Below are positions 12,477-42,770 of a stretch of 64,000 nucleotides of DNA, piece by piece; within the stretch, counting starts at the first letter, position 1; every line of letters starts with the position of its first letter. Origin of the DNA: Vulcanimicrobiota bacterium (GTDB lineage: Bacteria > Vulcanimicrobiota > Xenobia > Xenobiales > JADMJV01). The DNA lies in NCBI GenBank assembly GCA_050250895.1, contig JBFWNU010000001.1:3459247-3523246 (forward strand). Reading direction: 5' to 3'. The notes under the pieces were generated by a model. That model did no database searches, was not told the origin of the DNA, and saw only the letters and a list, made by a program, of their open reading frames with translations. A program made the translations under genes and the position numbers.

Positions 12477-12800
12477 ATGAAAAAGGTCTACGTCGCCCGG
12501 AAACAGCAACAGGCCGAGGCCGCCCAACTCAAGCAGAAGGCCCTCGAACCGCAAGAGAGGCATTGTCATATCCTCGACAAGAAAGTCAACATCTTAGTCG
12601 AGTATCCTGACTACAAGAATCCCCACTACAAAGGGCCTGAGGGCGCGATCTATTGCGAGAATATCATCGAGTGTTTTCAGAATAACATCGAATGCCGCTA
12701 CAGCGGGATCTCGCCGCTCTATCCCGACCCCTTCATCCCGCGCGAGAAGAAGCCAGACGAAGAGACCGAGGGCGAAGAAGAGGCAGCACCCGAAGAATAG
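12477..12800 (+). CDS. Small hypothetical protein with four Cys and an acidic C-terminal tail
   Basis: 107 aa: basic, coiled N-terminus, Cys at HCH, YCEN, ECF and ECRY, then a tail EKKPDEETEGEEEAAPEE. Noticeably less GC-rich than its neighbours. No recognisable family. Confidence 0.5.
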   Translation: MKKVYVARKQQQAEAAQLKQKALEPQERHCHILDKKVNILVEYPDYKNPHYKGPEGAIYCENIIECFQNNIECRYSGISPLYPDPFIPREKKPDEETEGEEEAAPEE

Positions 12801-13043: not shown

Positions 13044-15026
13044 TTGAGCTACGTACTTTTTCGGGTCTGCTATGCCCGGCGAGTCCGCGATCCAGAAAAA
13101 AGAGTAAGGTCTCTGCTCGCGAATCTGCGCGACCGAATTCCCGAGATCGAGCCGCATTGGGTGCAGTCGGCTCCTTTCTTTCAGGACCCCGAGGTGGGCG
13201 TGCTGGTTCGGCTGCCTCGCGACGCTTCGGAAGAGGTCATCGACCGTATTCGGGATACTCTCGAGCGGCGCCGCATTCATTTTGAAGAACAGCGACTGGT
13301 GGCCGAAGAGACCCGCGAGCCTTTCGGCGCTTTCATCGAGCGTGAGTCGATCGAGAAGATGGTCGAGGCGGGCAAGGCGTTCTGCCACATCGGCTTATTG
13401 ACCGAAGGCCTCGACGAGTTGCAGACGGCCCTCGAACTCGAGCCGGGCTGCACCGAAGCCTATCACTACCTGGTGGCCATCCTGCGCCAGCTGGGGCGCC
13501 CTCAAGAGGCCGAGAGCTGGCTCTTGCGCGGACTTAGTCTCCATCACGATTCTTCGTCGTATCACTATCTGCTGGCTTCGGTCTTTCAAGAGATCGGCAA
13601 ACTCGACGAGGCTCTCTCGCACCTCAAGCGGGCTATCCGCCTGGACCCCGATTCGGGTATTCTCTATTGCTGCCTGGGCAACGTGTTGCAAAAGATGGGA
13701 CGCGAGCAGGCCGCGCGCCTGGCCTATGAAGAGGCGCTGGCCAAGGAACTCGAACTGGCCGAGGCGGCACTGGGTCTGGGGGGGTTGTTGCTCGAGCAGG
13801 GCCGGCTGGGCGAGGCCATGGATTGGCTGGTCCGGGCCATCTCGATCGACTCCAACTGCGTCGAGGCCCGTTTGAAGCTGGGCTGGTGCTATCTGCATCT
13901 GGGCGAAACCGAGACCGCCGAGATCGAGTTCTTGCAGGTGGCCAACGGCCCGGCCGTCGAGTATCACTTTCCGGCCCGCTTCAGCCTCGGGCGTCTTTAT
14001 GTACTTTCGGGTAACGACGCCATCGCCGAAGAGATTCTCGACGAGATCTGCAGCCAGCAACCTGAACTGGGCGAAGCCCATCGCTTTCTGGCCGAGGCTT
14101 GCAGCAATCTGGGCGATCACGAGAAGGCTTTGACCCACTGGGAGAAGGCGTGCGAGCTGATGCCTGACGCCTTCGAGCAACTGCGGCCTCACATGGCCCT
14201 GGCCCTCTCGCGGGCGGGTCGCCTGGTCGAAGCCGAGGCGGTGCTGCTGGAGGTGCTCGAGCGCACCGGCGCCCGCGCCGACATCCTCGAGGTGCTGGCC
14301 TCGGTGCACATGGCTCGCGAGGATTGGAAGCTAGCCCGTGAGGTGCTCGAACAGGGCGAGGCGGTGGATCCCGAGTCGGCCATGATCGCCTTCCAGCAGG
14401 GCTGGGTGAGCGAGAACCTGGGCGAAACCCGCCAGGCCTTCGCCTACTACAACAAGGCCGTGCGCCTCGACCCCGAACTGTACGAGGCTTATTGCGGACT
14501 GGGCTGGCTCTACTATGAGTTGGGTGACTACGACATCGCCCTGGTCCTGTTCGAGCAGGCCCACCAGCTGGCTCCTGACAACGCCGAGTATCTCGACCAC
14601 ATCGGCTGGGTGAATCTCTTGCTAGAGAATCACAGCGAGGCTCTGGGCTGGTTCGAGAAGGCGGTCAAGCTCGAGCCTGACTGCGCCTTCTTCCGCAGCC
14701 ACCGAGGGGCCGCCCTGTTCCACCTGGGCCTGCACGAACACGCTCGTCTCGAACTCGAAGACGTGCTGGCCGGCGAGGTCGACCCGATGGTCGAGGCCTT
14801 TGCTCGCTATGTGCTGGGCCTGGTGCTCTCGGAAGAGGGCAAGGCAGAGCAGGCCGAAGAAGAGTTCATCAAGTCGACCCAGACTGACGAGCTACCCCCC
14901 GAGTTCGTGGCCATGACCTCGAAAGGGCGGCTGGCTGGCGGCAATCCCTGGCAGAACTACAGGCACGGCGCTCAAAAGGGAGATAGCGCCCTGTTGAGGA
15001 AACTCTCTGGCGTAGTCAACGAATAG
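13044..15026 (+). CDS. TPR-repeat protein (660 aa)
   Basis: TTG start with GGGGAGG SD. Many TPR units (AYHYLVAILRQLGRPQEAESWLLRGL; AYCGLGWLYYELGDYDIALVLFEQAHQLAPDN). Confidence 0.82.
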   Translation: MSYVLFRVCYARRVRDPEKRVRSLLANLRDRIPEIEPHWVQSAPFFQDPEVGVLVRLPRDASEEVIDRIRDTLERRRIHFEEQRLVAEETREPFGAFIERESIEKMVEAGKAFCHIGLLTEGLDELQTALELEPGCTEAYHYLVAILRQLGRPQEAESWLLRGLSLHHDSSSYHYLLASVFQEIGKLDEALSHLKRAIRLDPDSGILYCCLGNVLQKMGREQAARLAYEEALAKELELAEAALGLGGLLLEQGRLGEAMDWLVRAISIDSNCVEARLKLGWCYLHLGETETAEIEFLQVANGPAVEYHFPARFSLGRLYVLSGNDAIAEEILDEICSQQPELGEAHRFLAEACSNLGDHEKALTHWEKACELMPDAFEQLRPHMALALSRAGRLVEAEAVLLEVLERTGARADILEVLASVHMAREDWKLAREVLEQGEAVDPESAMIAFQQGWVSENLGETRQAFAYYNKAVRLDPELYEAYCGLGWLYYELGDYDIALVLFEQAHQLAPDNAEYLDHIGWVNLLLENHSEALGWFEKAVKLEPDCAFFRSHRGAALFHLGLHEHARLELEDVLAGEVDPMVEAFARYVLGLVLSEEGKAEQAEEEFIKSTQTDELPPEFVAMTSKGRLAGGNPWQNYRHGAQKGDSALLRKLSGVVNE

Positions 15027-15160: not shown

Positions 15161-15955
15161 TCAAGTCCCCCGCAGTCGTATCGCGGTTTCTCGTTGCAAA
15201 CGCTTGGCCTGGGTCAGCAACCGATAATCCCAGGGAAAGTCATGCTCGACCCTGGCCTGAATGCTGGGCGTCAGAGACTGAAATTTGTCGACCACCTCGT
15301 CCTGGCGGGGGTGCTGCATGCCCAGTTGAACCGAGGCGCCGGCTACCCGGCGGCGGGTGTAGGCGAGGGGCAGGCCCATGCTCGAAAACAGGTGGGGCAG
15401 GTCGTGGTCGAGCGAATCGGCCAGACCCACGTACCAGCAGCGTTCCAGCAAGGCCAGCGCGGCGCGATACGCCTGTTCGCCGGCCAGGGCAAGCCCGGTA
15501 AATCGCCGAGCATAGAAGTCGCAGGCGCTACTGCGCGCCTGTTTGAGGAAGCAGTCGCCATACCACTGTTCGAAAGAGGCAACCGCCAGGCCCCGGCTGC
15601 GGGCGAAGTTGTAGCGGCTGACGCAGCGCTCGGCCGGGTCGCGCAGCACCGTAAAATAGCGGGCTTCTCGGCCGCCAAATCGTTGATGAATTCCATAGTA
15701 GGTCCGGTGCCCGCACAGCACTCGCACCTCGGCCAGTTCAGGGGCGGTCAAATCTTCAAATTGCGGTAGGCCGTGGTGCAGGCGATCTTGATAGCCCCAC
15801 TGGCCTAGATGAAATACCGCTCGATTCCATTCCAAGTGCTGCCAGAGGTGTCCGTTGATGGTCGTGCCGGCCGCCTTGGGCAGATGGAGAAAGACCCAAA
15901 GGACAGGCGCGCTAGTCGGCAAGGCCGACCCCGTCTTGAGCGAGCTCGAGAGCAA
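15161..15955 (-). CDS. Sulfotransferase (family-2-like)
   Basis: 5'-PSB-like FLHLPKAAGTTI and 3'-PB-like TVLRDPAERCVSRY. The ATG at 15955 overlaps the upstream gene by 44 nt; an alternative TTG sits at 15922. Confidence 0.75.
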   Translation of the reverse strand: MLSSSLKTGSALPTSAPVLWVFLHLPKAAGTTINGHLWQHLEWNRAVFHLGQWGYQDRLHHGLPQFEDLTAPELAEVRVLCGHRTYYGIHQRFGGREARYFTVLRDPAERCVSRYNFARSRGLAVASFEQWYGDCFLKQARSSACDFYARRFTGLALAGEQAYRAALALLERCWYVGLADSLDHDLPHLFSSMGLPLAYTRRRVAGASVQLGMQHPRQDEVVDKFQSLTPSIQARVEHDFPWDYRLLTQAKRLQRETAIRLRGT

Positions 15956-17753
15956 TGATAGAACTGGCGTGCATCAACTTGCCGATTCCCACCTCAGAGG
16001 TTTCCATGGCCGACAGAAGTTTGGCCACATTGATGTAGCGAAACGGATGTCGCTCGATTCCCTCGCTCCGCCATTGACGGGCCAGCAAAGCTAGCGCCTC
16101 GCGCACATCCTCCACCCCCTGTTGGGCGCGGACAGGTTCAGCCTTGCTGTTAAAGCGAATCGAGGCGGGCAAGAGTTCGGCCGCCCCAACGCGCATCAGC
16201 CAGCGCGTGACCCCGTCGCGGCAGAAAAGGCGGGGGGGTAGGGCCAGGCAAAACTCTAGAGCCCTCCGATCGAGCAAAGGATAGGCGTAGGCCACACCAT
16301 GCTCTCTGCCACTGGCATACCACTGTTCGAGCCGGGCGGTAGTGCCACCCTGGCGCAGCAGCTGCAGCTGGGTTTCGTGCACGCCGTAAGGCAGGACCCA
16401 GCGAGTGGGGTACCGTTCGCCCCTTCGACTCAGCTCTTCTCTGAGAAAAGGTGAAGGCTTACGGCTGGCGCCGAAGGCCAGCAAGTCGGAAAGATGGTGG
16501 CGCCAGCTTCTGGGGGCCCAGGGCAAGAGGCGATGGAACAGCAGTGGTAAGATGCCCCAGCGCGCGATCTGTTTCCAGGGTTTGCCCCGAGCGCATGCCT
16601 GACGATAACACTCGCGCCATTGGCCCCGCTTGAGCAGGCTGGCCAGCATGCCTCGTCCGTTGAACGAGAACCCCTCGTCACCGCCCCAACCCGACAAAAT
16701 GACCGGCAAACCCCGACGTTGGGCCTTTTGCTGAATGGCCAGTTCCGACACAAGGGCCCTCAAGGTGGGTTGGCAGGCGGGATTGCGACGAAAGAAGTCG
16801 GCCAGGGTCGAAGGGTCATGGCAGGTGGTCTCGAGCTGCATGCCCTCGCTTTCACAGAACTCGAGCAGGGTCTGGAACTCTTGTTCACCCCGGCACTTTT
16901 CGGTCAACCAGGTGAAGGCCAGCGGCGGCGCCAGGCCCTGACGACGACGGCTGCGCGCCGTGAGCGCCGCTACGGCTGACGAATCCAGGCCGCCGCTAGC
17001 GTGCACGGCCACGGCCGGGTAGCCCTGAATGCGATCCTCGACCACTCGCTCGAGCAGTTCTCTGGTGGCTACCAGGTAATCGTCGTCTTCGGCCAGTTGT
17101 AGCTCTGGCAGGTCGTCAGGCCGCCAATACCGAGTGAGACTCAATCCGGCCGCCGTCCATTTGAGGGTGTGGGCGGGTGGCACCTTGAAGATGTGCTCGT
17201 AAAAGGTGCGCTGCGGGTCGACGAAGGCTTTGCGGGAGAGGCTCGTGAGCAAATAGGTCTCGTCGAGCTGGGTCGACGCCTCGGTGGCCAGGAGGGCGCG
17301 CACATCGCTGGCCAGCAGAAAGGCCGTGCCGACGCGGCTGTAGTACAGAGGGCGGCTGCCGATATGATCTCGGCCACACAGCAACGCTTGAGTGCGCTGG
17401 TCCCATAGCGCGAAGGCGAAGTCTCCGTAGAGCTTGTTGGGAAAGGTTTCTTGCCAGTGATGATAGGCGGCCAGCATCGTCTGGCTGGGGTTTGGACTCT
17501 GGCCCCCGACCGAGACCGGACAATCCAAGCGGGCTTCGGCCACCAGGGCCGCTTTTTCATCGGCTACGGGTGAGGCGTTGGCGGCCTCGGGGCCGGTCTG
17601 GTGGAATTTGAGATAGCCCAGGGCAACTCCGGGAGCACACCAGCGGAAGGTGCCATGGGGACCAAAACCGAGCCCCAGAAGCCGTTGCAACATCGCCTCC
17701 AGGCGACCCTGACAGTCTCTGGCCACCGGGTCGACGACCGCCACGATGCCCAC
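15912..17753 (-). CDS. Asparagine synthetase B-like protein, candidate lasso peptide cyclase (C protein)
   Basis: 613 aa with a GTG start. The N-terminus GIVAVV lacks the catalytic Cys of true AsnB (MCGI). PP-loop VHASGGLDSSAVAAL. Sits next to a PqqD-family gene and a lasso-type precursor. Confidence 0.8.
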   Translation of the reverse strand: MGIVAVVDPVARDCQGRLEAMLQRLLGLGFGPHGTFRWCAPGVALGYLKFHQTGPEAANASPVADEKAALVAEARLDCPVSVGGQSPNPSQTMLAAYHHWQETFPNKLYGDFAFALWDQRTQALLCGRDHIGSRPLYYSRVGTAFLLASDVRALLATEASTQLDETYLLTSLSRKAFVDPQRTFYEHIFKVPPAHTLKWTAAGLSLTRYWRPDDLPELQLAEDDDYLVATRELLERVVEDRIQGYPAVAVHASGGLDSSAVAALTARSRRRQGLAPPLAFTWLTEKCRGEQEFQTLLEFCESEGMQLETTCHDPSTLADFFRRNPACQPTLRALVSELAIQQKAQRRGLPVILSGWGGDEGFSFNGRGMLASLLKRGQWRECYRQACARGKPWKQIARWGILPLLFHRLLPWAPRSWRHHLSDLLAFGASRKPSPFLREELSRRGERYPTRWVLPYGVHETQLQLLRQGGTTARLEQWYASGREHGVAYAYPLLDRRALEFCLALPPRLFCRDGVTRWLMRVGAAELLPASIRFNSKAEPVRAQQGVEDVREALALLARQWRSEGIERHPFRYINVAKLLSAMETSEVGIGKLMHASSIIALELAQDGVGLAD

Positions 17754-17857: not shown

Positions 17858-18136
17858 ATGACACAGTTGAAGCCGACCAGTATCGTAACGCCCAGTGAGA
17901 GCGTCGTGGCCACAGAATTAGATGGAGAGATCGTGATGATGTCGGTGGAATCGGGCAACTACTTCGGGCTCGACGCCATCGCCACCGATGTCTGGAAGTT
18001 GGTCGATGGTCAGCGCTCGGTGGCTCAGATCGTGGACCAGTTGTGCCAGGAGTATGAGGTGGACGGGCAAGAGTGCCTCGACCACGTGCTCGAGCTGTTC
18101 GAGCGGATGCACGAACAGGGTGTTATCAGGGCATAG
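17858..18136 (+). CDS. PqqD-family peptide chaperone (RRE, lasso B1-like)
   Basis: 92 aa from the first ATG: ELDGEIVMMSVESGNYFGLDAIATDVWKLVDGQRSVAQIVDQLCQEYEVD...LELFERMHEQGVI, a typical PqqD/RRE pattern. Confidence 0.82.
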   Translation: MTQLKPTSIVTPSESVVATELDGEIVMMSVESGNYFGLDAIATDVWKLVDGQRSVAQIVDQLCQEYEVDGQECLDHVLELFERMHEQGVIRA

Positions 18137-19019
18137 TCTTGCGGATGTGTCCCGTGATGGCGAACCGGTAGTGAGAAAACTCCGGGGCGCTGGGGAAGAC
18201 GGGGCGTAGCTCATGCAGGCGCGCGCTTGGAAAAACCAGTAGGGCGTTGTCGGTGTGGACGAAAGTGGTGAAGCCGACCGGGTCGCAATCGCCGCTGGTC
18301 GTGTCTTCGTCGTAGAGGCGAAATTCGCCGCCCTGGAAGCGAGCGGGGCCTAGCTCGAAGGTGTAGACGTAACTCAAGACCCGGTCGGGGTGCTGGCTGC
18401 TGCGGTCGCGGTGGATTGGAAAGGCACCTCCGGGTCCATAACCCGTAAGCTTTCCCTCGAACCGGGCGAGGTTGAACTTGGGCACGGCCAGGTTAACCCA
18501 ATGCTCGGCGCAGATCTCCTCGAGCTGGGTGCAAATCCAATCTCTGATACCCGCCAGCGGCTGGGACCTGGTTCGTCGAAAGGAATGGTCAGCCAGGCGA
18601 AGATGGCCGCTCTCGATGGGGGTGAACTGGTCAGGCTGAGCCTGCACGTAGTTTACAAGGGCCCCGTGCAGCTCGAGGGGGAGCCATTGTTGTCGGCGGT
18701 GGAATGGGGAGGGAGCAATACCCTGGAGGGGCGGTGGACAAGCCCCTTGCAGGATGCTGAGGGCGATCGCGTTGCGCACCTTGCGGGGGTCGGCCGCCAG
18801 GGCAGCCTGGTAGTATCGCTCGGCCTCGTCTAGTTGGCCGCTACACCGAGCCAGGTGGCCGCGCAATCCAAGCACGATGGCGGGGTCGCAGTCACGGTTC
18901 TGATCGAGCCAGGCGCCCGCCCTCGCGAAGTCGCCTTGGGCCAACAAGACCCGAAAGAATTCTCGGATGTCAGGTTTTGCGGTCAAGGGGCTGGCGTTTC
19001 TGGAAGAACTCCTGGCCAT
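18126..19019 (-). CDS. 2OG-Fe(II) oxygenase-like protein with N-terminal TPR-like segment
   Basis: HxD...H facial triad candidates (FPIHRD ... ARLHELRPV) and a GGEFRLYD jelly-roll motif. The N-terminus has one or two TPR-like units. ATG at 19019 is preferred because the longer track ORF overlaps the divergent kinase gene. Confidence 0.65.
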   Translation of the reverse strand: MARSSSRNASPLTAKPDIREFFRVLLAQGDFARAGAWLDQNRDCDPAIVLGLRGHLARCSGQLDEAERYYQAALAADPRKVRNAIALSILQGACPPPLQGIAPSPFHRRQQWLPLELHGALVNYVQAQPDQFTPIESGHLRLADHSFRRTRSQPLAGIRDWICTQLEEICAEHWVNLAVPKFNLARFEGKLTGYGPGGAFPIHRDRSSQHPDRVLSYVYTFELGPARFQGGEFRLYDEDTTSGDCDPVGFTTFVHTDNALLVFPSARLHELRPVFPSAPEFSHYRFAITGHIRKTMP

Positions 19020-19062
19020 CCTCCAGGAGGAGGTTGCAGCTTCGCAGGCGCAGGTGGGTCTC

Positions 19063-19884
19063 ATGGAGCATTGGTACACTTGCCACGGCTTGTTGATTCG
19101 TTCCGAGCTAGCTTTGCCAGAACTGCGCCAGGCCAATCCTGGTGAGACCGCGCTCTCGATTGTGCAGGGCCATCTTCCCCCCGGCCGCCCAGGTCGCCAG
19201 GTCGAGGAGCAATTGGCCACGCTGCGTATCCCCGGGGTGGCCAATCTTCGCATCGCCGAGGGTCGACAGATCACCGTCGAGTTGGCTCCGCGTGCTACAG
19301 TCGAGCAGGTGCGACCCTATCTGCTAGGCACGGGTCTGGCTGCCATCGTGCATCAGAGAGGACTGCTTCCTTTGCATGCCAGCGGCCTGCTAATGGATGC
19401 ACAGGGCGTTGTGCTGGCCGGAGTCAAGGGCAGCGGTAAGTCGACTTTGGCTGCCTACGGCTTGAGTTCGGGCTACCACCCTCTTTGTGACGACGTGGCC
19501 GTGATTCGATTCTCGCCAGCGCCCGAGATCGTCGCCGGGCCCGGTCGCCTCTGGTTAAACGACGATAGCCTCGAACAAGTGGGTCGCCGACCAAGCTGCG
19601 CGATCAACAAAGGACTCAAACGCGGCCTCGATTTTGAAGCTCGCGGGGCCTATTCGATGAGCAAGATCTTCATCCTGGACCCAAAATCAAGCCAATGTGT
19701 TCGCCTGCGAGGGCTCGAAGCACTCGGGGCTCTCCACAAGTGTACCTTCAGGAAGGGCTTCATCCCCGCGCGCGGCCATGTAGAACGGCTCTGCCACCTG
19801 TGCCGCCACGTGCCCGTCTATCGCTTGGGGCGAAGTGAGGTTTGGAGCCTGTCGGACCTGCTTACGCAGGCCATTCGCACCTAG
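19063..19884 (+). CDS. HPr kinase-related kinase (HprK-related kinase A/B type)
   Basis: Start MEHWYTCHGLLIRSELALPEL. LPLHASGL followed by P-loop GVKGSGKSTLAAYG and CDDVAVI. The start is inferred from the typical N-terminus of this family. Confidence 0.75.
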   Translation: MEHWYTCHGLLIRSELALPELRQANPGETALSIVQGHLPPGRPGRQVEEQLATLRIPGVANLRIAEGRQITVELAPRATVEQVRPYLLGTGLAAIVHQRGLLPLHASGLLMDAQGVVLAGVKGSGKSTLAAYGLSSGYHPLCDDVAVIRFSPAPEIVAGPGRLWLNDDSLEQVGRRPSCAINKGLKRGLDFEARGAYSMSKIFILDPKSSQCVRLRGLEALGALHKCTFRKGFIPARGHVERLCHLCRHVPVYRLGRSEVWSLSDLLTQAIRT

Positions 19885-20015
19885 CTCGCTCTATAGAAGG
19901 CACCATCCTGGTCTTCGATGTCATAAGGGCCACCCAGGGTTGCTGCCACTACCGGCACCGGTAGGAACTTGAACTCGGGTTTCGACCAGGGTTTCTTTTT
20001 TTTAGGGTCACTCAT
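19881..20015 (-). CDS. Candidate lasso-type RiPP precursor peptide (44 aa), not in the ORF track
   Basis: My translation: ATG at 20015, TAG at 19883-19881, giving MSDPKKKKPWSKPEFKFLPVPVVAATLGGPYDIEDQDGAFYRAS. Thr at -2, Gly1, Glu7/Asp8, bulky F13/Y14/R15 and a C-terminal Ser. It is the last gene of the minus-strand tailoring operon. Confidence 0.7.
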   Translation of the reverse strand: MSDPKKKKPWSKPEFKFLPVPVVAATLGGPYDIEDQDGAFYRAS

Positions 20016-20037
20016 GTGACCACACTTCGCGGTCGAT

Positions 20038-20694
20038 TTAGTCTACCCTCTGTAGCCAACAAAAACTGTCTTCGCCACCGCTTAGAGAGCGCGAATAGCC
20101 GAACCGGGAAAAATCGCGAGCGTAGAATTCACCTACCATCTGCTCGAGTTCGGCGTCGTAAGCTTCGAATCCGAGACCCGCCGAAGCATTCGCCCTCGGC
20201 AGTCCGTCGAAGGGTAGTTGCAGGCGGCCAAAGAGCCCGGCCAGGTCTTGCTCGAGGTGTTCGAAGCGGCAGACGACATCCACGGCCAGTTCGTCTTCGA
20301 TCAACAGGGTGTCGACCATAGGCCGCAGCAGGAGACGCGCCCACTTGTCCTGGCTTGAAACCAATCGTTTGAGGACTGACCTGGGATCCTCGGGCAGCGG
20401 GGTGTCTCGATACAAGAAGGCGGCCGCCGAGAGAAAACGGCTGTAAGGATTTCGAACCACCGCGAATTTCAGATACTCATCCCAGGGGGGCAAGAAGGGC
20501 CGCAACTGGGTAGCGCTGACATGCCCGTGCCGCAGTGCGGCCAGGGCCTGCACCGGCGCGCACCGTGGTCCGAAAAGCAGGCTCTGTTCCCAGTCGGTGG
20601 CGGCCAGATGCGGTCGCAGGCTTTGACGGATCGCGTGGGAAGCCGTGCGGGGGACGGCCAGAAAGATGAACTGGTGCCGGAACGAGACGATCAA
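20038..20694 (-). CDS. Sulfotransferase (family-2-like)
   Basis: FIFLAVPRTASHAIRQSL (5'-PSB-like), VVRNPYSRFLS (3'-PB-like), RFEHLEQDL. 4-nt overlap with the upstream gene. Confidence 0.75.
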   Translation of the reverse strand: MIVSFRHQFIFLAVPRTASHAIRQSLRPHLAATDWEQSLLFGPRCAPVQALAALRHGHVSATQLRPFLPPWDEYLKFAVVRNPYSRFLSAAAFLYRDTPLPEDPRSVLKRLVSSQDKWARLLLRPMVDTLLIEDELAVDVVCRFEHLEQDLAGLFGRLQLPFDGLPRANASAGLGFEAYDAELEQMVGEFYARDFSRFGYSRSLSGGEDSFCWLQRVD

Positions 20695-21509
20695 GGCTTG
20701 GGCACCAGGTAGCCAAACCTGGCCATGGTTTGGCCGTGTTCGCGTTCGAGCAGCTCTCTTTGAGCTTCATCCAAATGATTGCGGCCGTGGCCGGCTCGGC
20801 CGCTTCGAAAGAAGCTGCCGGAACGGTGCGGACCCTCTCGAAAACCGTCGGCTTGCTCTTGTGCTTGCAGACGATCGAAGGTGGAAAACTCGATAGCTCG
20901 GGCCACTCGTTGTTCTTCGCGCGGTTGGTTCAAAAACTCGAGCGCCGAACCAAAAGTCTGGTGAGGGTGAGCCAGCAGGTCTTCGTAGCGGATCACCAGC
21001 ACCCGAAGTTCGGCAGCCAACCAGCTCTCGACATGGCCACTCCAGCTGCCTACCAGTTCTGGGACCTGCAACCCACGATTGCCCTGAGCCAGGCGATAAC
21101 CGGGGTCGGCCATCCAGCCCGTCACCCGCGCGAGACTCGCGTTGCTGTGATGGGCAAACGAGACGGCCACGTCGTGTGGGTCGCGAACGAGGTAGATGAC
21201 TCCGAAGGTCGCCTCGGGGGGAAAGAGTCTCGGTTGATAGAGATCGTGAACCTTCAAAAAGAGCGGGTCGGTGGTCTGGGCGGCCAGGTGGCGGTAGGCG
21301 ATGGCCCTCCACTCGGGAAGTTCTTCCTCGGTAGCATCCGCCGTTTTTAGTTCCAGCGTGGCATCGAGCAACGCCCGACTGCTGCCCCAGGGTAAGGTGC
21401 CCAGCGCGTTGATCGAGACCGGCACTTTGGCCTGACTGAGATAGTTGGCTAGCAAGACCCTGAGCCAGGTATTGCCGGACTTGGGATACGAGGCAAGCCA
21501 AACGATCAA
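20691..21509 (-). CDS. Sulfotransferase (Sulfotransfer_1-like, aryl/cytosolic type)
   Basis: IVWLASYPKSGNTWLRVLL (PKSGTTW-type 5'-PSB) and IYLVRDPHDVAVSFAHH (RDPRDxxVS-type 3'-PB). Confidence 0.82.
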   Translation of the reverse strand: MIVWLASYPKSGNTWLRVLLANYLSQAKVPVSINALGTLPWGSSRALLDATLELKTADATEEELPEWRAIAYRHLAAQTTDPLFLKVHDLYQPRLFPPEATFGVIYLVRDPHDVAVSFAHHSNASLARVTGWMADPGYRLAQGNRGLQVPELVGSWSGHVESWLAAELRVLVIRYEDLLAHPHQTFGSALEFLNQPREEQRVARAIEFSTFDRLQAQEQADGFREGPHRSGSFFRSGRAGHGRNHLDEAQRELLEREHGQTMARFGYLVPKP

Positions 21510-22342
21510 GAACGAATCCTTTCTGCCAGTTCGGGCAACCGACCGGCCGGCACCCTGGCTCGCCAGAACTCGAGGTCAGAACCGGCCAAGTGACTCGCTT
21601 GACGAAAGTTCTCGCTCATCAGACCCAGGGCCCTCAGACCGGAGCGCGACGGAGTGTATCTGAGCAGAACTTCAAGGCCCTCGCGCCGACTCGACCGGGT
21701 GAGCGAGATTTGCTCGCCATTCCATAGACTGAGGTCATAGACACGTCGAACGAGCACGGGTGTGCCTGGTCGGGCCGGTTTCAGATGTCGCGCCAGGTTG
21801 GGCCGGCGGACCAACCAGTCAGAACCCCTGGGTCGTCCCAGGGTGATGTAGGGTGGGCCCGGCACGAGTCGATTTTCGGCCAGCACCACCAGTTCGTCAC
21901 TGATGAAATCGCAGCCCTGCTGATGCAGCAGATCGATGAGGGTCGACTTGCCCGCCCCGGAGATACCGACAAAGATCATGCCGCCACTTGGGCCGACCAC
22001 AGCGCTGGCCTGAAGGACCGCTCTGCCGGACAGAGTCAGCAGCACACCCAAGACATTCCCTAGAAGAAACGTCTCGATATCCTGACTGGTCACTTCTGCC
22101 TCGCTCTCGACGGTGACCTGATGGTTGGGGCGGATCAAGTATCTGGCCACTTTGGGCACGTGAAGGAGTAGCAGGCCGTCGCTGGTCTCCCAGAGCGGAC
22201 CGTGGCGGCGGCCGCCTGGCAGGCGTCGGGGTACGGGGCCGCGTCGGACCGTCCAATCGGGAGCGGTGTCGGTGGGAGTCAAGCGTTGGCTGGACCAATC
22301 CAGGCCCAGGGCCAGGCCAAAAGCGTTGTAGACTTCGAGCAT
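21506..22342 (-). CDS. Second HPr kinase-related kinase
   Basis: N-terminus MLEVYNAFGLALGLD, LQASAVV, P-loop GISGAGKSTLIDLL, SDELVVL. 4-nt overlap with the downstream sulfotransferase. Confidence 0.75.
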   Translation of the reverse strand: MLEVYNAFGLALGLDWSSQRLTPTDTAPDWTVRRGPVPRRLPGGRRHGPLWETSDGLLLLHVPKVARYLIRPNHQVTVESEAEVTSQDIETFLLGNVLGVLLTLSGRAVLQASAVVGPSGGMIFVGISGAGKSTLIDLLHQQGCDFISDELVVLAENRLVPGPPYITLGRPRGSDWLVRRPNLARHLKPARPGTPVLVRRVYDLSLWNGEQISLTRSSRREGLEVLLRYTPSRSGLRALGLMSENFRQASHLAGSDLEFWRARVPAGRLPELAERIRS

Positions 22343-22354
22343 CGGTGCGCCTCG

Positions 22355-23179
22355 CTAGCCGCGCAACCGGTAGCCAAAGTTTGCCAGCAGGGCCTCACAC
22401 TCGCCGTAGACCCGGTTGAGTGTCGCCAGATCCTCGCCACTCAAGCGCCCCCACTGTTGCTCGTTCATGTTGCGCAAGGGCTCATCATAGCTTCCTTTGA
22501 CCGGTAGCTGCTGGCGCAGGTCGAGGTCGGCCAGTTGCGGCATCAAGCCGGCGATCTGGGCTTGCACCTGTTGAGGTCGGTCGCACATGTCTTCATAGCT
22601 AAAGAATGTCCCCAGATGGCCATAGCGGCGGAGATTCTCGGCTTGCGCCTCGAGACAAAGGGCCAGGTGGAGAGCGGCCAGAGCCAGGCGCTCCTGACGT
22701 TCGTAACCCGCCAGGCAAAGGCGGCGCGAGATTCCTTCGGCGGTCGCATACGGGTCGCGAACCATGAAAAGGAAGCGAGCATCCGAGAAGCTGTCCACCA
22801 GTTGGTCGACGAGCAGGAGAAAGGGCGGAGACTTCTCGACGAAGACGGTCGCCCCGGCGCTCCGTGAGAAGGCCTGAAAATACCAGGCTCGGCGAGTGGT
22901 CACCCAGTCAAAGTTGGCAGGGTTCTGAAAGGCAGCGACCCATTGTGGCCTGGTGGCCCAGATGGTGGCCGCGCCGAGGGCGCGCGAACTCGGACCGGCG
23001 AAGCCGAAAGTGTGTTGGCCTTCGCGGGGCAGGTTCCAGGTGGCCCGACTGGTGGCCAGAGCGTTTCGCAAGAATGTGCTGCCGCTATTGTTAGGGCAAA
23101 TGACAAAGAGATGATGCTCGACCAGAGTGGGCAGGTCGGCAAGCGCCCCTCGGAAGATCTTGGTGGCCCCGGATTTCAA
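22355..23179 (-). CDS. Sulfotransferase (third sequence type)
   Basis: LFVICPNNSGSTFLRNAL (P-loop-like 5'-PSB) and FLFMVRDPYATAEGISRR (3'-PB-like). Confidence 0.7.
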   Translation of the reverse strand: MKSGATKIFRGALADLPTLVEHHLFVICPNNSGSTFLRNALATSRATWNLPREGQHTFGFAGPSSRALGAATIWATRPQWVAAFQNPANFDWVTTRRAWYFQAFSRSAGATVFVEKSPPFLLLVDQLVDSFSDARFLFMVRDPYATAEGISRRLCLAGYERQERLALAALHLALCLEAQAENLRRYGHLGTFFSYEDMCDRPQQVQAQIAGLMPQLADLDLRQQLPVKGSYDEPLRNMNEQQWGRLSGEDLATLNRVYGECEALLANFGYRLRG

Positions 23180-24105
23180 AGCTCGGATAGGTTGGCCTCA
23201 GGGAAGGTCGTCGTGGCCGGGTTTCGGTTTTGGCCCGAATCCCCCCTGCTCGAGCTGTCGTGGGGGCGCACCCTTAGAGCTTGCAGGTGGGTGGACGCGT
23301 CTAGAAAGCTGCGCTGCCAACGAGCCCAGCAGTGGAGAAACCTTGGCGAGGCCAGCCCTCGCCAGAGGGCCGAACTGGACCATGGCTTGACCGGAGTATT
23401 GTAATGCAAGACCCTGGCCTGGAGCCAGGAAATACCGCTGTGGGCCGAGATGGTCTGGGCGTGGAGTAGTAGATAATTGAATTCACAGCCGACCAGGGTT
23501 TGCTTGCCCTGGAGCAGCCGATTGAGAACCAGTTGGTCGGTGTGCGGTTGCTCGACGCCGGACCAGGTGTCGGGCCTCAGCAAACCCAGCGCCGCCTGAT
23601 AGGTTGATGGTTCGAATTGGCTCGGATCGACCACCATGAATCCCGAGTTGAAGGTGTTCTTCAAGCTGCCGCCGGCCAGCGGCGAGTAGGTCACCGGGTC
23701 GCGAGGCAGACCTCGGTAGTAGGCACCGTCTCCGGCACAAAGGAGGGGACCCGTGTGGTCCAGGACGGGCTCGATCGAATCAAGAAAGAGCAGGTCGCTG
23801 TCGCAGAAGAACAGGCGTTCATAGCGGGTCCACCGGAAGAGTTCCAAAGAATAGAAACGAGCCTTGCGATCGTTTAACTCAGGCCGAGCCAGGACCAACT
23901 CGCCCACCTGTGCTTGAAGTTCGCGGCTGACCGGCACCAACCGGGCCCCGGTAGCTTTTTCGAGCAATCTGCGCGAAGAACCGGGCAGACGGTGATGCAG
24001 CACCAGGATGTCTCCGCCGAACCAGGGGTTATGGCGGCGGAAGGAGTGGAGCATCACCAACGTGCCTAGCACAAAGCTCTGACTGGTGACGGTAATCAGG
24101 GCCAT
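23176..24105 (-). CDS. Glycosyltransferase family 8-like
   Basis: ITVTSQSFVLGTLVMLHSF, DxD (FFCDSDLLFLD), FNSGFMVVD. Start MALITV at 24105 is preferred; alternatives at 24120 and 24162. Confidence 0.72.
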   Translation of the reverse strand: MALITVTSQSFVLGTLVMLHSFRRHNPWFGGDILVLHHRLPGSSRRLLEKATGARLVPVSRELQAQVGELVLARPELNDRKARFYSLELFRWTRYERLFFCDSDLLFLDSIEPVLDHTGPLLCAGDGAYYRGLPRDPVTYSPLAGGSLKNTFNSGFMVVDPSQFEPSTYQAALGLLRPDTWSGVEQPHTDQLVLNRLLQGKQTLVGCEFNYLLLHAQTISAHSGISWLQARVLHYNTPVKPWSSSALWRGLASPRFLHCWARWQRSFLDASTHLQALRVRPHDSSSRGDSGQNRNPATTTFPEANLSEL

Positions 24106-24579: not shown

Positions 24580-25818
24580 ATGGCAGTTCCTGGCATCGCT
24601 TTCGGGGGGCAAAATTTCGCAACCAATCAACTTTTTCAACGGCCGCTCAGCAGCCCACCGCTACAGCAGATCGCCGGAAACCCTCAGTTAGCCGGTCAGT
24701 TTCAGCAGCTTCTTCAGGTCCTGATCGGCGCCCTCTCGCAGCTCAGCCAGGGCTACCAGTCCTTCGGCGGCTACCCCACCCCTGGTTTCCCCAATCCAGG
24801 CTTCCCTGGACAGCCCCCCTTCGGAACTCCTCCCTTCGGCACTCCCACCCCGGGGACGCCGATTTTCGGCGGCTACAACCCACCCGTGGGCGGCTATCCC
24901 ACCCCCGGCACGCCGACCTTTCCCCCCGCACCCGGTGGCGCCAGCCCCACCGATCCTCGCTTTTTCAACTGGGGCGTAGCCGCCCATAACGGCAACGCCA
25001 AGCAAGCCGTCAGCACCCAACAGCGCACCAGCATCAGCGGCCTCGACGACGGCCAGCGCGCCATTCTTCACCTCTGGGGTCGTCAGATGACGGCCGGCGG
25101 CAAGCAAGACGGCAGTATCTATTTCAACGTGCTCAATGACAAGACCGGCGCCTTCACCCCGGCCGAGCACGCCCTGGTCGAGCAGGCCTACGCCCGCGAG
25201 ATGGCGATGTATGGCGGCGTCACCGGTAAAGAGCTAGATCGCGCTTTCTTCGGCCTCTACGGCCAGATGACCGGCGAAGACATCTCGGGCAAGTATGGCA
25301 ACGCGCCGGTCCACTTCTCTAACGGCCAGCAACTGGATCTCAGCAACAATAACCAGGCTCTGGGAGAGTTCGGCAACACGGTGATGCGCCTGTGGGGTCA
25401 CGACCGTCTCGACAACGGCCGCAACGACGGCTCGATCCTGGCCTTCAGCCTGCAGAATCCCGACGTTGCCTTCGACTCGGCGGCCTCGGGGGCCAACCAG
25501 CAGACCATCGAGTCGCTGGCTGCCGCCGATATGGCCGACGACGGCGTGTTGAACAACAGCAGCCTCTCCAAGGCTTTCAGTCAGACCCTCGACCAGGCCT
25601 ACTTCGGAGCCCCCTCTGGCAACAATCAGCAGGTGCTCCAGGGGGCCGGCATCAGCACTGTCCAGGTCGGCTCGATTCTCGATAAGATCAAGAACTCGCC
25701 CATCCCGGGTGTGCCGGCCGGAGTCGACATCACCAACATCGCCAACATCGGCAAATGCCCGGTCCTGGGTCAGTCGGTTCAACAGAGCGGTCTCGGCGGC
25801 GTTGGCTTCTTCGGCTAA
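24580..25818 (+). CDS. Hypothetical Pro/Gly-rich protein with duplicated LWG...DGSI module
   Basis: 412 aa. GYPTPG/FGTP repeats at residues about 70-115. Two similar modules (AILHLWGRQMTAGGKQDGSIYFNVLN and TVMRLWGHDRLDNGRNDGSILAFSLQN). No signal peptide recognised. Confidence 0.6.
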   Translation: MAVPGIAFGGQNFATNQLFQRPLSSPPLQQIAGNPQLAGQFQQLLQVLIGALSQLSQGYQSFGGYPTPGFPNPGFPGQPPFGTPPFGTPTPGTPIFGGYNPPVGGYPTPGTPTFPPAPGGASPTDPRFFNWGVAAHNGNAKQAVSTQQRTSISGLDDGQRAILHLWGRQMTAGGKQDGSIYFNVLNDKTGAFTPAEHALVEQAYAREMAMYGGVTGKELDRAFFGLYGQMTGEDISGKYGNAPVHFSNGQQLDLSNNNQALGEFGNTVMRLWGHDRLDNGRNDGSILAFSLQNPDVAFDSAASGANQQTIESLAAADMADDGVLNNSSLSKAFSQTLDQAYFGAPSGNNQQVLQGAGISTVQVGSILDKIKNSPIPGVPAGVDITNIANIGKCPVLGQSVQQSGLGGVGFFG

Positions 25819-28009: not shown

Positions 28010-28335
28010 TTCCACCGGGCGATCGCCGCCCCTGGCCTTGGCCAGCCCGCTGGCCGTGCCCCAACCGGGGTGGGCGAAATCCCCCAGCCGGGGTGGGCGA
28101 TCGCTGGCCTGGGCCAGCCCGCCAGCCGTGGCCCCACCCGGAGTGGGCGAAATCCCCCAGCCGGAGTGGGCGATCGCTAGCCTTGGCCAGCCCGCCAGCC
28201 GTGGCCCCACCCGGAGTGGGCGAAATCCCCCAGCCGGGGTGGGCGATCGCTGGGCTTGACCACGGCCGGTGGCCGTGGCCCCACCCGGGGTGGGCGAAAT
28301 CCCCCAGCCGGAGTGGGCGATCGCTGGCTCCCGCG
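28010..28335. repeat. Intergenic tandem repeat, about 73-bp unit, 4-5 copies, each carrying GGGCGATCGC
   Basis: The GGGCGA(TCGC) anchor recurs at 28017, 28095, 28168, 28241 and 28315. GGGCGAAATCCCCCAGCCGG recurs at 28072, 28145, 28218 and 28292 (periods 73, 73, 74). Each unit is an internal duplication of about 36 bp. Confidence 0.9.
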
Positions 28336-28430
28336 AAAAGCCGGAGCAAGCCGGGTCTGGCGGCGGGCGTGCTCCCGCGAAATGCCGGAGTAAACCGGAC
28401 CACGGCCCCGGCTCCCGCGAAATCCCGGAG
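28327..28430. repeat. Three copies of GCTCCCGCGAAAnnCCGGAG spaced 40-44 bp
   Basis: Copies start at 28327, 28371 and 28411. Confidence 0.8.
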
Positions 28431-38394: not shown

Positions 38395-40230
38395 ATGAGA
38401 GGTGCCATGAATAGCCCCGCCCGAGCAGAACTCGAGCATCGGCGACGTGAGCTCTACCGTCAGGCCCGCCACGAGGTCCAGGCCAGGACCGATCGGATGT
38501 TCGCGCGGTTGATGTGCCTTCAATATGGGGCCGGAATTCTGGCCGTGCTCTGGCTGAGCCCGTACACCTGGTATGGGACGACGGCCCGGGTCCACCTGCA
38601 TGTATTGGCCACCCTCTTCCTGGGAGCTTTGCTGGCCGCTCCTCCGGTCTGGCTGGCCTGGCGCCGAGCCGGACGCTACTCGACCCGAATGGTCATCGCC
38701 GCCTGCCAGATGCTCTTCTCGGCCCTGCTCATCCACATCACTGGCGGTCGCATCGAGACCCACTTCCATGTCTTTGGCTCGCTGGCGTTCCTTTCGTTTT
38801 ATCGAGACTGGCGGGTCTACGTTCCGGCCACGCTGGTGGTGAGCCTCGATCATCTGGTTCGAGGCCTCTACTATCCGCTGTCGGTGTTCGGGGTGGCTGA
38901 CGCCAGTCATTGGCGCTGGCTCGAGCACGCGGCCTGGGTCATGTTTTGCGTGTTCTTCCTGGTTCGCTCGGTGCGCGAGACGCGCCAGGAGATGATGCAG
39001 ATCGCCGACCAGCAGGCCAGGTTGGAGCACACCAACCTGCTGATCGAGTCCGAAGTCAGGCACCGAACCATCGAATTGGCCGGCGAACGCTTGCGCTTTC
39101 TCAGCGCTTTCGAAAACGCTCCCATCGGCATGGCCATCGTGGCCGTGAACGGAGCCCTGCTGAGGGTCAATCAGGAGTTCTGCCGAGTGCTTGGCTATCG
39201 TGCCGAAGAGTTGACCGGACGCCAGCTGCAAAGCCTGGTGCCCGGCGACAGGGAGCACCCCGAACTCGGCTCGGCGGGGCGCGGAGAGTTTCGGGTGACC
39301 TATGTCGAGCAGCAGGGAGCCGAGGTAGAGTTAAGCTGCCACGCTAGCTACCAGGCCGGCTCGGAGCACCAGATGGCCCATTTCATCGTCCAGTTTCTAG
39401 ATATCACCGAGCGGGTTCGGGCGGCTCGTCTGATGTTAGAGCAAGAGCAACGGACCCAACTGGCCCAGAAGCTCGAGTCCCTGGGTATCCTGGCCGGCGG
39501 GATCGCCCACGAGCTGGCCACGCCGATCCAGTATATCGGAGACAACGCCAACTTCCTGGAAGACCTTTTCCGGAGCGAGATTACTCAGTTGCTGGCCGCC
39601 TACCAGCCAACCGGGGAGGGCGCCATCGATATCGATTTTCTGCGCGAGGAGATGCCCGCTGCCCTGGCTCAGATCGGCGAGGGGGTAGAGCGGGTGAGTA
39701 GCATCGTTCGTTCGATCAAGGAATACGCTCACAACCGCGAGGGCGACGGGGGGCCGGTGGACCTCAACGAGCTTATAGAGAACACCATTACGATGTCCCG
39801 CAACGAGTGGAAGTACATCGCTGAGGTCGAAGTTGACCTGGCCTCGCAGCTGCCCTCGGTGGTGGCCGATCGAAGCGGGCTTGCTCAGGTCTTTCTCAAC
39901 CTTCTGGTCAACGCCGCCCACGCGGTCGAAGACGTGTTCAAAGCCACCGAGCGTAGAGGCCTGATCAAGGTCTCGACCGCGTGCTGCCAGAACGGCGTCG
40001 AGGTTCTCTTTCAGGATACAGGACCAGGGGTGCCGCCAGAAATCGCCAGCCGCATCTTCGACCCCTTCTTCACCACCAAGGATGTCGGTCGCGGAACAGG
40101 GCAGGGGCTGTCGATTTCGAGCAACATTCTCAAAGCCCACGGTGGCTGTCTCGAGCTGGTCGACAGCAGCCGGCAAGGCAGTTGCTTCCGCGTCTGGCTT
40201 CCCCTCACTTCCCTTCAGGAAGTGGCCTGA
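38395..40230 (+). CDS. Membrane sensor histidine kinase (multi-TM N-terminus, PAS, HisKA, HATPase)
   Basis: Five or six N-terminal TM helices. PAS (APIGMAIVAVNGALLRVNQEFCRVLGY). H-box GGIAHELATPIQYI. N box LLVNAAHA. G boxes DTGPGV and GTGQGLS. Confidence 0.85.
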   Translation: MRGAMNSPARAELEHRRRELYRQARHEVQARTDRMFARLMCLQYGAGILAVLWLSPYTWYGTTARVHLHVLATLFLGALLAAPPVWLAWRRAGRYSTRMVIAACQMLFSALLIHITGGRIETHFHVFGSLAFLSFYRDWRVYVPATLVVSLDHLVRGLYYPLSVFGVADASHWRWLEHAAWVMFCVFFLVRSVRETRQEMMQIADQQARLEHTNLLIESEVRHRTIELAGERLRFLSAFENAPIGMAIVAVNGALLRVNQEFCRVLGYRAEELTGRQLQSLVPGDREHPELGSAGRGEFRVTYVEQQGAEVELSCHASYQAGSEHQMAHFIVQFLDITERVRAARLMLEQEQRTQLAQKLESLGILAGGIAHELATPIQYIGDNANFLEDLFRSEITQLLAAYQPTGEGAIDIDFLREEMPAALAQIGEGVERVSSIVRSIKEYAHNREGDGGPVDLNELIENTITMSRNEWKYIAEVEVDLASQLPSVVADRSGLAQVFLNLLVNAAHAVEDVFKATERRGLIKVSTACCQNGVEVLFQDTGPGVPPEIASRIFDPFFTTKDVGRGTGQGLSISSNILKAHGGCLELVDSSRQGSCFRVWLPLTSLQEVA

Positions 40231-42085: not shown

Positions 42086-42134
42086 GGCCGGCTCCTTCGC
42101 AGGAACCCCCTCATCCTCTTGCCAAGAGCCTGGC

Positions 42135-42770
42135 ATGCCGCCAATCGAACGCGTGCTCACCCGTGACGGCTCGGTGACTTATCGCCACCTCGAGCTGGGG
42201 GTGACCTATCGCTCGCTGGGTGGGGCCAGCGCCGAGTCTGACCATGTCTTCGTGCAGGGGACCGGCCTGCCGGCTCGCCCCGGCCCCTGGCGGGTGCTCG
42301 AACTGGGCTTTGGCAGCGGGCTCAACTTCGCCCGCACGCTGGCTCACCTGGACGGCCGCCGCCTCGACTATCTCAGCTGCGAACCGGACCCCCTCGACCC
42401 CCAGTTGTGGCTGGTGCCGGCCGTGTGGCAAGACCCCGCCGTCGAGCAGGTGGGCGAGGTGCGCCGCCGCCTGGCCGGTCGCTGGCAAGAGTGCCAGCTG
42501 GCCAGCAACTATTTCCATGCCTACTTTCACGACCCGTTCGCCCCGCGCACCGCCCCCGATTGCTGGACGGCTGAGTGCTTTGCCTGGGCGGCCCGGGCTC
42601 TCACCCCGGACGGTGTGCTGGCCACCTATGGCGCTTCGACCGCCGCCCGCCGCGCCATGGCCGAGGCGGGGCTGGCGGTGGGGGTGTTACCCGGAGCCGG
42701 CGGCAAGCGCGAGATGACGGTGGCCTCGCGCTGCCCCACAGCCATCGCTCGGGCCCGGAGGTGGCCGTGA
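42135..42770 (+). CDS. MnmC-like SAM-dependent methyltransferase domain protein (DUF752-type)
   Basis: VLELGFGSGLNF motif I and AYFHDPFAPRTAPDCWT (DGFxP-type motif). ATG at 42135; the track extension to 41883 overlaps the divergent peptidase. Confidence 0.75.
   Translation: MPPIERVLTRDGSVTYRHLELGVTYRSLGGASAESDHVFVQGTGLPARPGPWRVLELGFGSGLNFARTLAHLDGRRLDYLSCEPDPLDPQLWLVPAVWQDPAVEQVGEVRRRLAGRWQECQLASNYFHAYFHDPFAPRTAPDCWTAECFAWAARALTPDGVLATYGASTAARRAMAEAGLAVGVLPGAGGKREMTVASRCPTAIARARRWP

Follow-up and report, generated by a model that had tools for sequence, protein, structure and literature searches.

Lasso peptides are studied for their promise as stable antibiotic and drug scaffolds, and few of the reactions that tailor them are known. 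HprK-like serine kinases have already been described from lasso clusters, namely PadeK (paeninodin), ThcoK, SyanK and PsmK. The lasso kinases share a common His-Lys-Asp-Asp motif, all four residues of which are needed in ThcoK (reviewed in PMC9266682). In pseudomycoidin the C-terminal phospho-Ser also carries a hexose, which requires PsmN (PMC6993621). The same study suggested in 2019 that a recognisable glycosyltransferase might stand in for PsmN in a Stanieria cluster, reported lasso formation without B proteins, and mentioned a B-less cyanobacterial cluster containing a kinase and a glycosyltransferase (PMC6993621). In the davasins, the mature lasso peptide is iteratively glycosylated on serine by IgtG, described as the sole such glycosyltransferase of a lasso cluster and as a clade of its own among glycosyltransferases of peptides that are made by ribosomes and modified after translation (RiPPs). 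Sulfotransferase genes adjoining lasso kinases have been noted since 2014–2016, with no function assigned to them in the literature that we found. Here we describe a lasso-peptide gene cluster in a 64,000-nucleotide stretch of the genome of a Vulcanimicrobiota bacterium (assembly GCA_050250895.1, contig JBFWNU010000001.1, positions 3,459,247 to 3,523,246; the whole stretch is called ‘the window’ below). Positions 19063–24105 of the window are the tailoring half of this cluster, which spans ∼15.2–24.1 kb and encodes two HprK-like proteins (K1 and K2), a GT8 glycosyltransferase and four sulfotransferases or sulfotransferase-like proteins (ST1, ST2, ST3 and STa).

Comparison with related loci placed the cluster in a large and phylogenetically broad family whose HprK-like gene usually has a Sulfotransfer_1 gene directly after it. 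Within that family, the cluster falls in a sub-branch with an additional, glycogenin-like GT8 gene, which is usually adjoined by a Sulfotransfer_3 gene. On balance, we favour the reading that these genes form a tailoring module of the lasso cluster, with K1 as a kinase, K2 as a partner protein, and the GT8 enzyme and sulfotransferases acting on the tail of the peptide.

The core of the module is a tight run of five enzyme genes and the precursor gene on the minus strand, in the order GT8 (23176–24105; 309 aa), ST3 (22355–23179; 274 aa), K2 (21506–22342; 278 aa), ST1 (20691–21509; 272 aa), ST2 (20038–20694; 218 aa) and precursor (19881–20015; 44 aa). Neighbouring genes in the run either overlap by 4 nt (as ST3 does with the GT8 stop codon and ST1 with that of K2) or are separated by gaps of 12–22 nt. 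A scan for promoters and terminators over 15.0–24.7 kb gave no more sites than shuffled sequence, so that the operon structure is read from gene spacing alone. K1 (19063–19884, plus strand; 273 aa) is convergent with the precursor stop codon; its start at 19063 is backed by the N-terminus of aligned homologues and by one independent gene call. Adjoining the run are genes for the lasso cyclase, a PqqD chaperone, an oxygenase and STa, and identical genes are present in two independent public assemblies. The original prediction for this interval had been made from the sequence alone; its two P-loop proteins (with GVKGSGKST in K1 and GISGAGKST in K2), its GT8 enzyme (PF01501, 50.9 bits) and its 44-residue candidate precursor are all present as described, whereas the three sulfotransferase genes lying between them (20038–20694, 20691–21509 and 22355–23179) had gone unmentioned.

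The lasso-peptide setting that was also proposed there is borne out by the two adjoining biosynthetic genes. The macrolactam synthetase (C protein; 15912–17753, minus strand, 613 aa) matches NF033535 at 6.5e-72, with a score of 243 bits that lies under the model cutoff of 525, and further matches Asn_synthase (2.5e-25) and GATase_7 (3.7e-17); it shares 34% identity with the cyclases encoded in two related loci, L007 and L006. The PqqD-type leader-binding chaperone (B1, or RiPP recognition element; 17858–18136, plus strand, 92 aa) matches PF05402 at 7e-21 and reaches 74.6 bits on NF033536 (lasso_PqqD_Bac), against a cutoff of 80. Cyclase and PqqD genes stand next to each other and the precursor ends in a (conserved) serine, as in the settings of the known lasso serine kinases.

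The precursor, taken from a six-frame translation, has the sequence MSDPKKKKPWSKPEFKFLPVPVVAATLGGPYDIEDQDGAFYRAS and ends in ...YRAS. We read its predicted leader as ending in ...AATL and its predicted core as GGPYDIEDQDGAFYRAS. At that junction (...AATL/GGPYDIED...), Thr stands at position −2, the core opens with Gly1, and Glu7 and Asp8 follow within it. This is the canonical layout of a lasso precursor, which has Thr at −2, starts its core with a small residue and carries Asp or Glu at core positions 7–9; the ring would form between Gly1 and either Asp8 or Glu7. Among the related precursors, that of locus L007 is the closest; it is of the same length and has Asp8 and the same layout (...KTQ/GGTGNRND).

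To place these genes in context, we used the GT8 subfamily to gather 54 genome loci and ST1 to gather 80 metagenome loci (loci carry labels from L001 onward), and annotated them with hidden Markov models that were derived from the window and from the loci looked at first. Searching small open reading frames (ORFs) of related loci with an iterated profile recovered ∼85 distinct homologous precursors with a common leader motif, K(K/R)xW.xP.l..l. Those of the GT8 sub-branch end in Tyr-x(1–6)-Ser (FYRAS in the window; FYRTS, FYRNS, SYRPS, NYRAS and RYTPSG are further examples). Among 64 distinct precursors from loci with GT8, 59 have a C-terminal Ser and 59 have a Tyr within the last eight residues; the corresponding numbers for the 14 distinct precursors from GT8-free loci of at least 10 kb are 13 and 7. 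Counted by locus (after the labels of L045, L061 and L062, all of which carry GT8, had been corrected by hand), the Tyr is found in 44/44 GT8-containing loci with a recognised precursor and in 2/10 GT8-free loci (L073 and L090; those without it are L079, L084, L120, L127, L141, L001, L011 and L013). Acidic residues precede the Tyr in most precursors (EDQDGAFY, NDQDDIFY and NEEASY, for example). The Y..S ending is also kept in six loci that have GT8, ST3 and cyclase genes and no HprK-like gene within 10 kb. Separately, single loci among L053–L060 (from Pseudomonadales and gammaproteobacterial metagenome-assembled genomes, MAGs) carry several different precursor genes of the family, with up to four or five per 20 kb.

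The term ‘paralogous’, as applied to the two kinases in the original prediction, applies in a distant sense only: K1 and K2 are 30% identical over 127 aa (E about 1e-8 to 1e-11) and are old paralogues. Their description as HprK-related is supported at the level of the fold and is weak at the level of sequence. The AlphaFold models of K1 and K2 are confident, with predicted local distance difference test (pLDDT) scores of 86.9 and 90.8, and Foldseek searches with both returned ATP-dependent phosphoenolpyruvate carboxykinase (PEPCK) at the top (E about 1e-7 to 1e-8) and HprK/P next (E about 1e-5 to 1e-6). The models thus indicate a PEPCK/HprK fold, which is the fold expected for the lasso-kinase superfamily. 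Against the TIGR04352 and TIGR04355 models (cutoff 200 bits), against which the original prediction had proposed to place both proteins phylogenetically, K1 scored 31.5 and 23.8 bits and K2 21.0 and 28.2 bits, in local matches of ∼50 residues around the P-loop, and by these scores neither protein is a member of either family. Nor is either a bona fide HprK/P, since K1 reached 17.6 bits on NF003883 (cutoff 252) and K2 gave no match; a crude test for the HPr active-site motif, G[ILVMF]H[AT]R[PA], found no match in any frame of the window. The prospect that these are ordinary HprK/P proteins with a cognate HPr, raised beforehand as the outcome that would count against a lasso role, is thus not what we observed.

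The two proteins differ in their catalytic residues. K1 has the motifs LHASG, GSGKST and CDDV, which supply an intact His-Lys-Asp-Asp tetrad, whereas K2 has VLQASAV, GAGKST and ISDEL, and thereby a deviant Gln-Lys-Asp-Glu. In comparison with PadeK, ThcoK and SyanK (made through the family models and the published tetrad), K1 and K2 are alike in being HprK-homologous P-loop proteins of a lasso cluster whose precursor has a serine end, and K1 is alike in its tetrad; they are unlike in their low scores (21–31 bits) on TIGR04352 and TIGR04355 and, for K2, in the tetrad itself. K1 is assigned to PF27840 (a ScmC-like family), which is larger than the K2 family, and the proteins most closely related to it are encoded in simple lasso clusters, alongside genes for B2, the kinase, C (cyclase), B1 (PqqD) and NTP5 (an NTP_transf_5 nucleotidyltransferase). 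For K2 we found 34 homologues, and the four that were looked up are all in lasso clusters. We also considered whether K1 might be a gene unrelated to lasso peptides, as a homologue from Sphingomonas cannabina has no lasso neighbours; we rejected this because closer homologues are found in lasso clusters. Some PF27840 genes, from more distant relatives of K1, do lie outside lasso clusters: the S. cannabina gene (L002, 10001–10909) is beside a CBU_0592-family gene and a GNAT acetyltransferase gene, and another (L009, 8001–9367) has a PqqD gene as its sole partner, with large genes for transglutaminase and ATP-grasp proteins in the vicinity.

In this family the HprK-like gene is usually coupled to ST1. 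ST1 lies directly downstream, on the same strand, of 67/116 HprK-like genes, and an HprK-like gene lies directly upstream of 69 of the 115 ST1 genes; the ST1 family itself has at least 584 relatives in metagenomes. Two or more HprK-like genes are present in 6/28 long ST1-type lasso loci, and such multi-copy loci also occur in the GT8-type group (L036 from Alteromonas, L037 from a Methylophaga MAG and L041 from a Sphingorhabdus MAG). Across the family the His-Lys-Asp-Asp tetrad is found in 95 of 111 proteins. Deviant copies are concentrated where there is more than one HprK-like gene (9/16 multi-copy loci, as compared with 4/81 others; Fisher's exact test 4e-6, a value that overstates the significance because related loci are not independent), and all nine of these multi-copy loci keep one copy with an intact tetrad. 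K1 and K2 of the window fit this pattern. We therefore read K1 as the likely Ser kinase, with phosphorylation of Ser44 being plausible, and K2 as a diverged paralogue that has remained coupled to ST1. Because K2 has Gln-Lys-Asp-Glu and deviant copies are enriched beside intact ones, a single catalytic kinase accompanied by a diverged, sulfotransferase-tied paralogue fits better than two equivalent kinases. The proposal in the original prediction that the C-terminal Ser is phosphorylated survives for K1, in view of the intact tetrad and of the conservation of that Ser (59/64 and 13/14 precursors), and is weakened for K2 by the deviant tetrad. In an observation of a different kind, the kinase-type lasso loci L006, L011 and L013 were found to have genes for polysaccharide export and polymerization (Poly_export, Wzz and Wzy_C) as their direct neighbours.

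The sulfotransferase genes are the most abundant tailoring genes of the cluster, and three of the four pass the Pfam gathering score: ST1 (Sulfotransfer_1; PF00685, 7.3e-27, 94.8 bits against a cutoff of 22), ST2 (Sulfotransfer_2; PF03567, 3e-07, 31.3 bits against 22) and ST3 (Sulfotransfer_3; PF13469, 5.1e-10, 40.4 bits against 27). ST1 retains the loop that binds 3'-phosphoadenosine-5'-phosphosulfate (PAPS; SYPKSGNTW), and its best matches among solved proteins are three glycopeptide sulfotransferases (Teg14, Teg12 and StaL; 2e-15 to 4e-10), together with cytosolic SULTs. ST1 is unlike Teg12, Teg14 and StaL in being usually coupled to an HprK-like gene and in occurring also with precursors that lack an aromatic residue near their end. 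ST2 is 42% identical to its L007 orthologue, and ST3 shares 46–53% identity with the ST3 genes that adjoin GT8 in L006 and L007. The fourth protein, STa (15161–15955, minus strand, 264 aa), is encoded at the end of the cyclase transcription unit and falls just under the Pfam threshold (PF00685, 21.9 bits against 22, a borderline score); it has the motif HLPKAAGTT, similar to a PAPS 5'-phosphosulfate-binding loop, and its relatives adjoin the related clusters L049, L050, L118 and L134.

The GT8 enzyme (PF01501, 2.1e-13, 50.9 bits against a cutoff of 24.3) is encoded by the first gene of the minus-strand run. It has a DxD motif (DSD, in FFCDSDLLF) and a C-terminal H..KPW motif (in LHYNTPVKPW), and D102, D104 and K240-P241-W242 are invariant or nearly so throughout its subfamily. 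This subfamily is small, with 47 proteins and 54 genome loci, nearly all of them in lasso clusters. In the 32 long GT8 loci with a cyclase gene, the co-occurring genes are ST3 (29 loci), the HprK-like gene (26), ST1 (19), an oxygenase of the Asp/Arg-hydroxylase type (17), B2 (12) and NTP_transf_5 (9). ST3 immediately adjoins 27/65 GT8 genes, and in one case, in Amylibacter marinus NBRC 110140 (P0200; L015, 3037–4650, and L061), the two are fused in a gene for a 537-aa protein that lies between the PqqD gene and the lasso cyclase gene; the precursor of that locus ends in ...NYTPS. As a separate observation, at least three GT8-type clusters that are separate from one another (L020, L024 and L035) lie on a single chromosome, OY282455.1.

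When the GT8 subfamily profile was compared with solved structures, the best match was glycogenin-1 (4.6e-17), followed by LgtC (3.9e-9), with Skp1 GalT and LARGE1 also matched; the window protein used alone against Protein Data Bank (PDB) sequences gave no match at E≤0.01, and only the subfamily profile reaches glycogenin. Glycogenin is a GT8 enzyme that glucosylates itself on Tyr. The likeness extends to the DxD and H..KPW motifs and to the co-occurrence of GT8 with a Tyr in the presumed substrate; the window enzyme is unlike glycogenin in that the match is at the level of the profile only and that its acceptor would be a separate peptide, with glycosylation of the Tyr being our inference. 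Taken as a whole, the comparison favours a hydroxyl of the Y-x-x-S tail as the probable acceptor, with Tyr41 preferred (because of the analogy to glycogenin and because GT8 tracks the Tyr) and Ser44 as the alternative. Transfer of the sugar to the phosphate is possible, without specific support. Sulfation of the sugar, the peptide or both would follow the GT8 step.

Compared as a whole with the described systems, the cluster differs from paeninodin-type clusters in adding four sulfotransferases, GT8 and a 2-oxoglutarate (2OG) oxygenase, and in lacking B2 and an ATP-binding cassette (ABC) exporter. With pseudomycoidin (PsmK and PsmN) it has in common a lasso peptide that ends in Ser, together with a kinase and a function for the addition of sugar; it is unlike that system in having no PsmN-type (NTP_transf_5) gene in the window and a classical GT8 as its sugar transferase. 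With the davasins it shares a dedicated glycosyltransferase in a lasso cluster, but unlike IgtG the GT8 subfamily of the window has a wide distribution, a link to sulfotransferases and an association with a Tyr. IgtG was the one dedicated lasso glycosyltransferase of which we found a description. We found no description of a sulfated lasso peptide or of a GT8 enzyme from a lasso cluster in the literature searched. We rate what is new here as an uncharacterised combination of tailoring genes, joined to a known type of kinase, in a large and unstudied lasso family.

The sequence of events that we favour can be set out as follows, with the caution that every mechanistic step beyond gene identity and comparative patterns is inference. 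The PqqD protein would bind the precursor through its leader, and K1, with its intact tetrad, would phosphorylate Ser44 at the C-terminus of the linear precursor with ATP, in the manner of PadeK, ThcoK and PsmK. K2 would most likely be a weak or non-catalytic partner of ST1, one that might for instance hold the tail of the peptide, rather than a second kinase equivalent to K1, because its P-loop and fold are kept while two of the four catalytic residues are lost. The GT8 enzyme would use a UDP-sugar to attach a hexose to one of the hydroxyls of the conserved Y-R-A-S tail, for which we favour Tyr41, and the PAPS-dependent sulfotransferases would then place sulfate esters on the sugar and/or on Tyr or Ser hydroxyls. 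After removal of the leader, by a peptidase not encoded in the window, the cyclase would close Gly1 onto Asp8 (or Glu7). The expected product would be a small, strongly anionic lasso peptide with phosphate, sugar and sulfate on its tail. A more ambitious version, in which a family of at least several hundred loci produces tails that bear phospho-Ser, O-glycosylated Tyr (made by the glycogenin-like GT8) and sulfate esters all at once, with the degenerate paralogue K2 as an adaptor that catalyses nothing itself and offers the tail to the sulfotransferase with which it is coupled, is one that we advance only tentatively and consider rather doubtful.

Several observations weigh against the favoured sequence of events. 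In a rough neighbour-joining tree of the cyclases, loci with GT8 form one large clade and two small placements (L036/L037/L041 and L061), so that the association of Tyr with GT8 rests on few independent events; it is largely phylogenetic, and the role of the Tyr could be no more than that of a steric plug in the lasso. The acidic residues before the Tyr fit Tyr sulfation too, and not glycosylation alone. Because the C-terminal Ser is kept in the six loci without a nearby kinase, it may serve GT8 or ST3 and not a kinase, unless the kinase works in trans. Gln and Glu are conservative replacements, so that K2 may have kept its kinase activity. Searches of the whole 64-kb window by tblastn found no B2 leader peptidase (four B2 queries) and no lasso ABC exporter, and nothing at E below 0.6 with three NTP_transf_5 proteins from related loci. 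Many sister loci carry these genes, and with none of them detected in the window, maturation must rely on genes elsewhere; B2 is found within 12/32 long GT8-containing loci, and many sister loci likewise have no B2 within 10 kb. Finally, we found neither biochemical data for any member of the family nor a described product in the literature searched.

Two other assignments of the same enzymes deserve attention, and we regard each as unlikely. One of them is that the Tyr is sulfated by a sulfotransferase while GT8 glycosylates a Ser or Thr hydroxyl (Ser44, for example) and the kinase modifies another site or the sugar. The resemblance of ST1 to Teg12, Teg14 and StaL and to phenol SULTs points in this direction, as do the four sulfotransferase genes in a single cluster. 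Teg12, Teg14 and StaL sulfate phenolic residues of peptide antibiotics, and the Pfam family of ST3 is one that we take to hold protein-tyrosine sulfotransferases. The acidic residues that precede the Tyr in most precursors are, in addition, the usual context of Tyr sulfation. However, ST1 is equally present where the core has no Tyr near its end (L001, L079, L084, L127 and L141), and the Tyr is kept in GT8-containing loci with no ST3 or ST2 found nearby (L017, L025, L040 and L051).

We similarly doubt the scheme advanced in the original prediction, in which both kinases are active on the C-terminal Ser (in sequence or at different sites) and GT8 then adds a sugar to the phosphate, doing the job of PsmN. 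It has a precedent in the PsmN-dependent hexose(s) on the phospho-Ser of pseudomycoidin; NTP_transf_5 is absent from the window, the C-terminal Ser is conserved, and polyphosphorylation by a single lasso kinase is documented (PMC9266682). Its central substitution nevertheless does not hold as a rule, since NTP_transf_5 and GT8 occur together in 9/32 loci (including L007, L016, L036, L043 and L046); neither therefore replaces the other, and the two are not interchangeable. In related loci NTP_transf_5 occurs as a B2 fusion, and the PsmN-type nucleotidyltransferase has likewise been described as a B2 fusion in the literature. Glycosylation of a phosphate is also hard to reconcile with the six kinase-less GT8 and ST3 loci that keep the Y..S ending, with the tracking of the Tyr by GT8, and with the solved GT8 relatives (glycogenin, the best of them, LgtC, Skp1 GalT and LARGE1), which transfer to a Tyr or sugar hydroxyl; we know of none among them that transfers to phosphate. 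The loss of the tetrad His and second Asp from K2 stands against the two-kinase part of the scheme. That GT8 and the sulfotransferases are cell-envelope polysaccharide genes lying beside the lasso cluster by chance, with the kinases as the sole tailors of the peptide, seems to us very improbable: several sources label GT8 homologues as ‘lipopolysaccharide biosynthesis glycosyltransferase’ and the L006, L011 and L013 lasso loci adjoin polysaccharide export genes, but the tight run of GT8, ST3, K2, ST1 and ST2 also includes the precursor, as its final gene, GT8 adjoins a lasso cyclase in 29/32 long loci (in Alpha- and Gammaproteobacteria, Acidobacteria, Verrucomicrobia and Binatia), and the flanks of the cluster in the window are housekeeping and signalling genes, not polysaccharide genes.

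If the tailoring module operates as we favour, sulfation and perhaps Tyr glycosylation would be added to lasso chemistry, giving the first sulfated lasso peptides in the literature searched and a Tyr-O-glycoside in a ribosomal natural product, along with an example of a diverged kinase paralogue kept beside an intact one. The fixed order of kinase gene and sulfotransferase gene and the Tyr-x(n)-Ser tail provide concrete, testable acceptor sites (Ser44 and Tyr41) and enzyme pairs.

The remaining enzyme gene of the cluster encodes a protein with TPR and 2OG-Fe(II) oxygenase domains (18126–19019, minus strand, with a start at 19019 or 18947 and gene calls of 297 or 273 aa; PF13640, 2.4e-10, and TPR_2). 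It forms a second recurring pair with the HprK-like gene: the two are on the same strand with a gap of 13–70 nt in L036, L037 and L041, and are divergent in L014 and in the window (18126–19884).

Outside the cluster, two plus-strand ORFs lie between it and the NifS/NifU genes, one of 107 aa with no family match (12477–12800) and one for a 660-aa protein consisting entirely of TPR repeats (13044–15026). On the other side, a 412-aa protein with a Pro/Gly-rich N-terminal third and no Pfam or NCBIfam match is encoded at 24580–25818 (plus strand), divergent from the GT8 run and ∼470 bp from it. An S9 prolyl-oligopeptidase-family protein (40205–42178, minus strand), ∼16 kb from the cluster, was considered as a lasso isopeptidase; it scored 42 bits on the Atxe2 model (cutoff 400) and is probably unrelated. 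Four tandem copies of a 73-nt unit (75–100% identity) occupy 28058–28350, a region with no convincing ORF, and each contains the palindrome GCGATCGC. This palindrome occurs at 11 sites in the window as compared with 2.7 expected by shuffling, and 5/11 are accounted for by the tandem copies and a nearby site.

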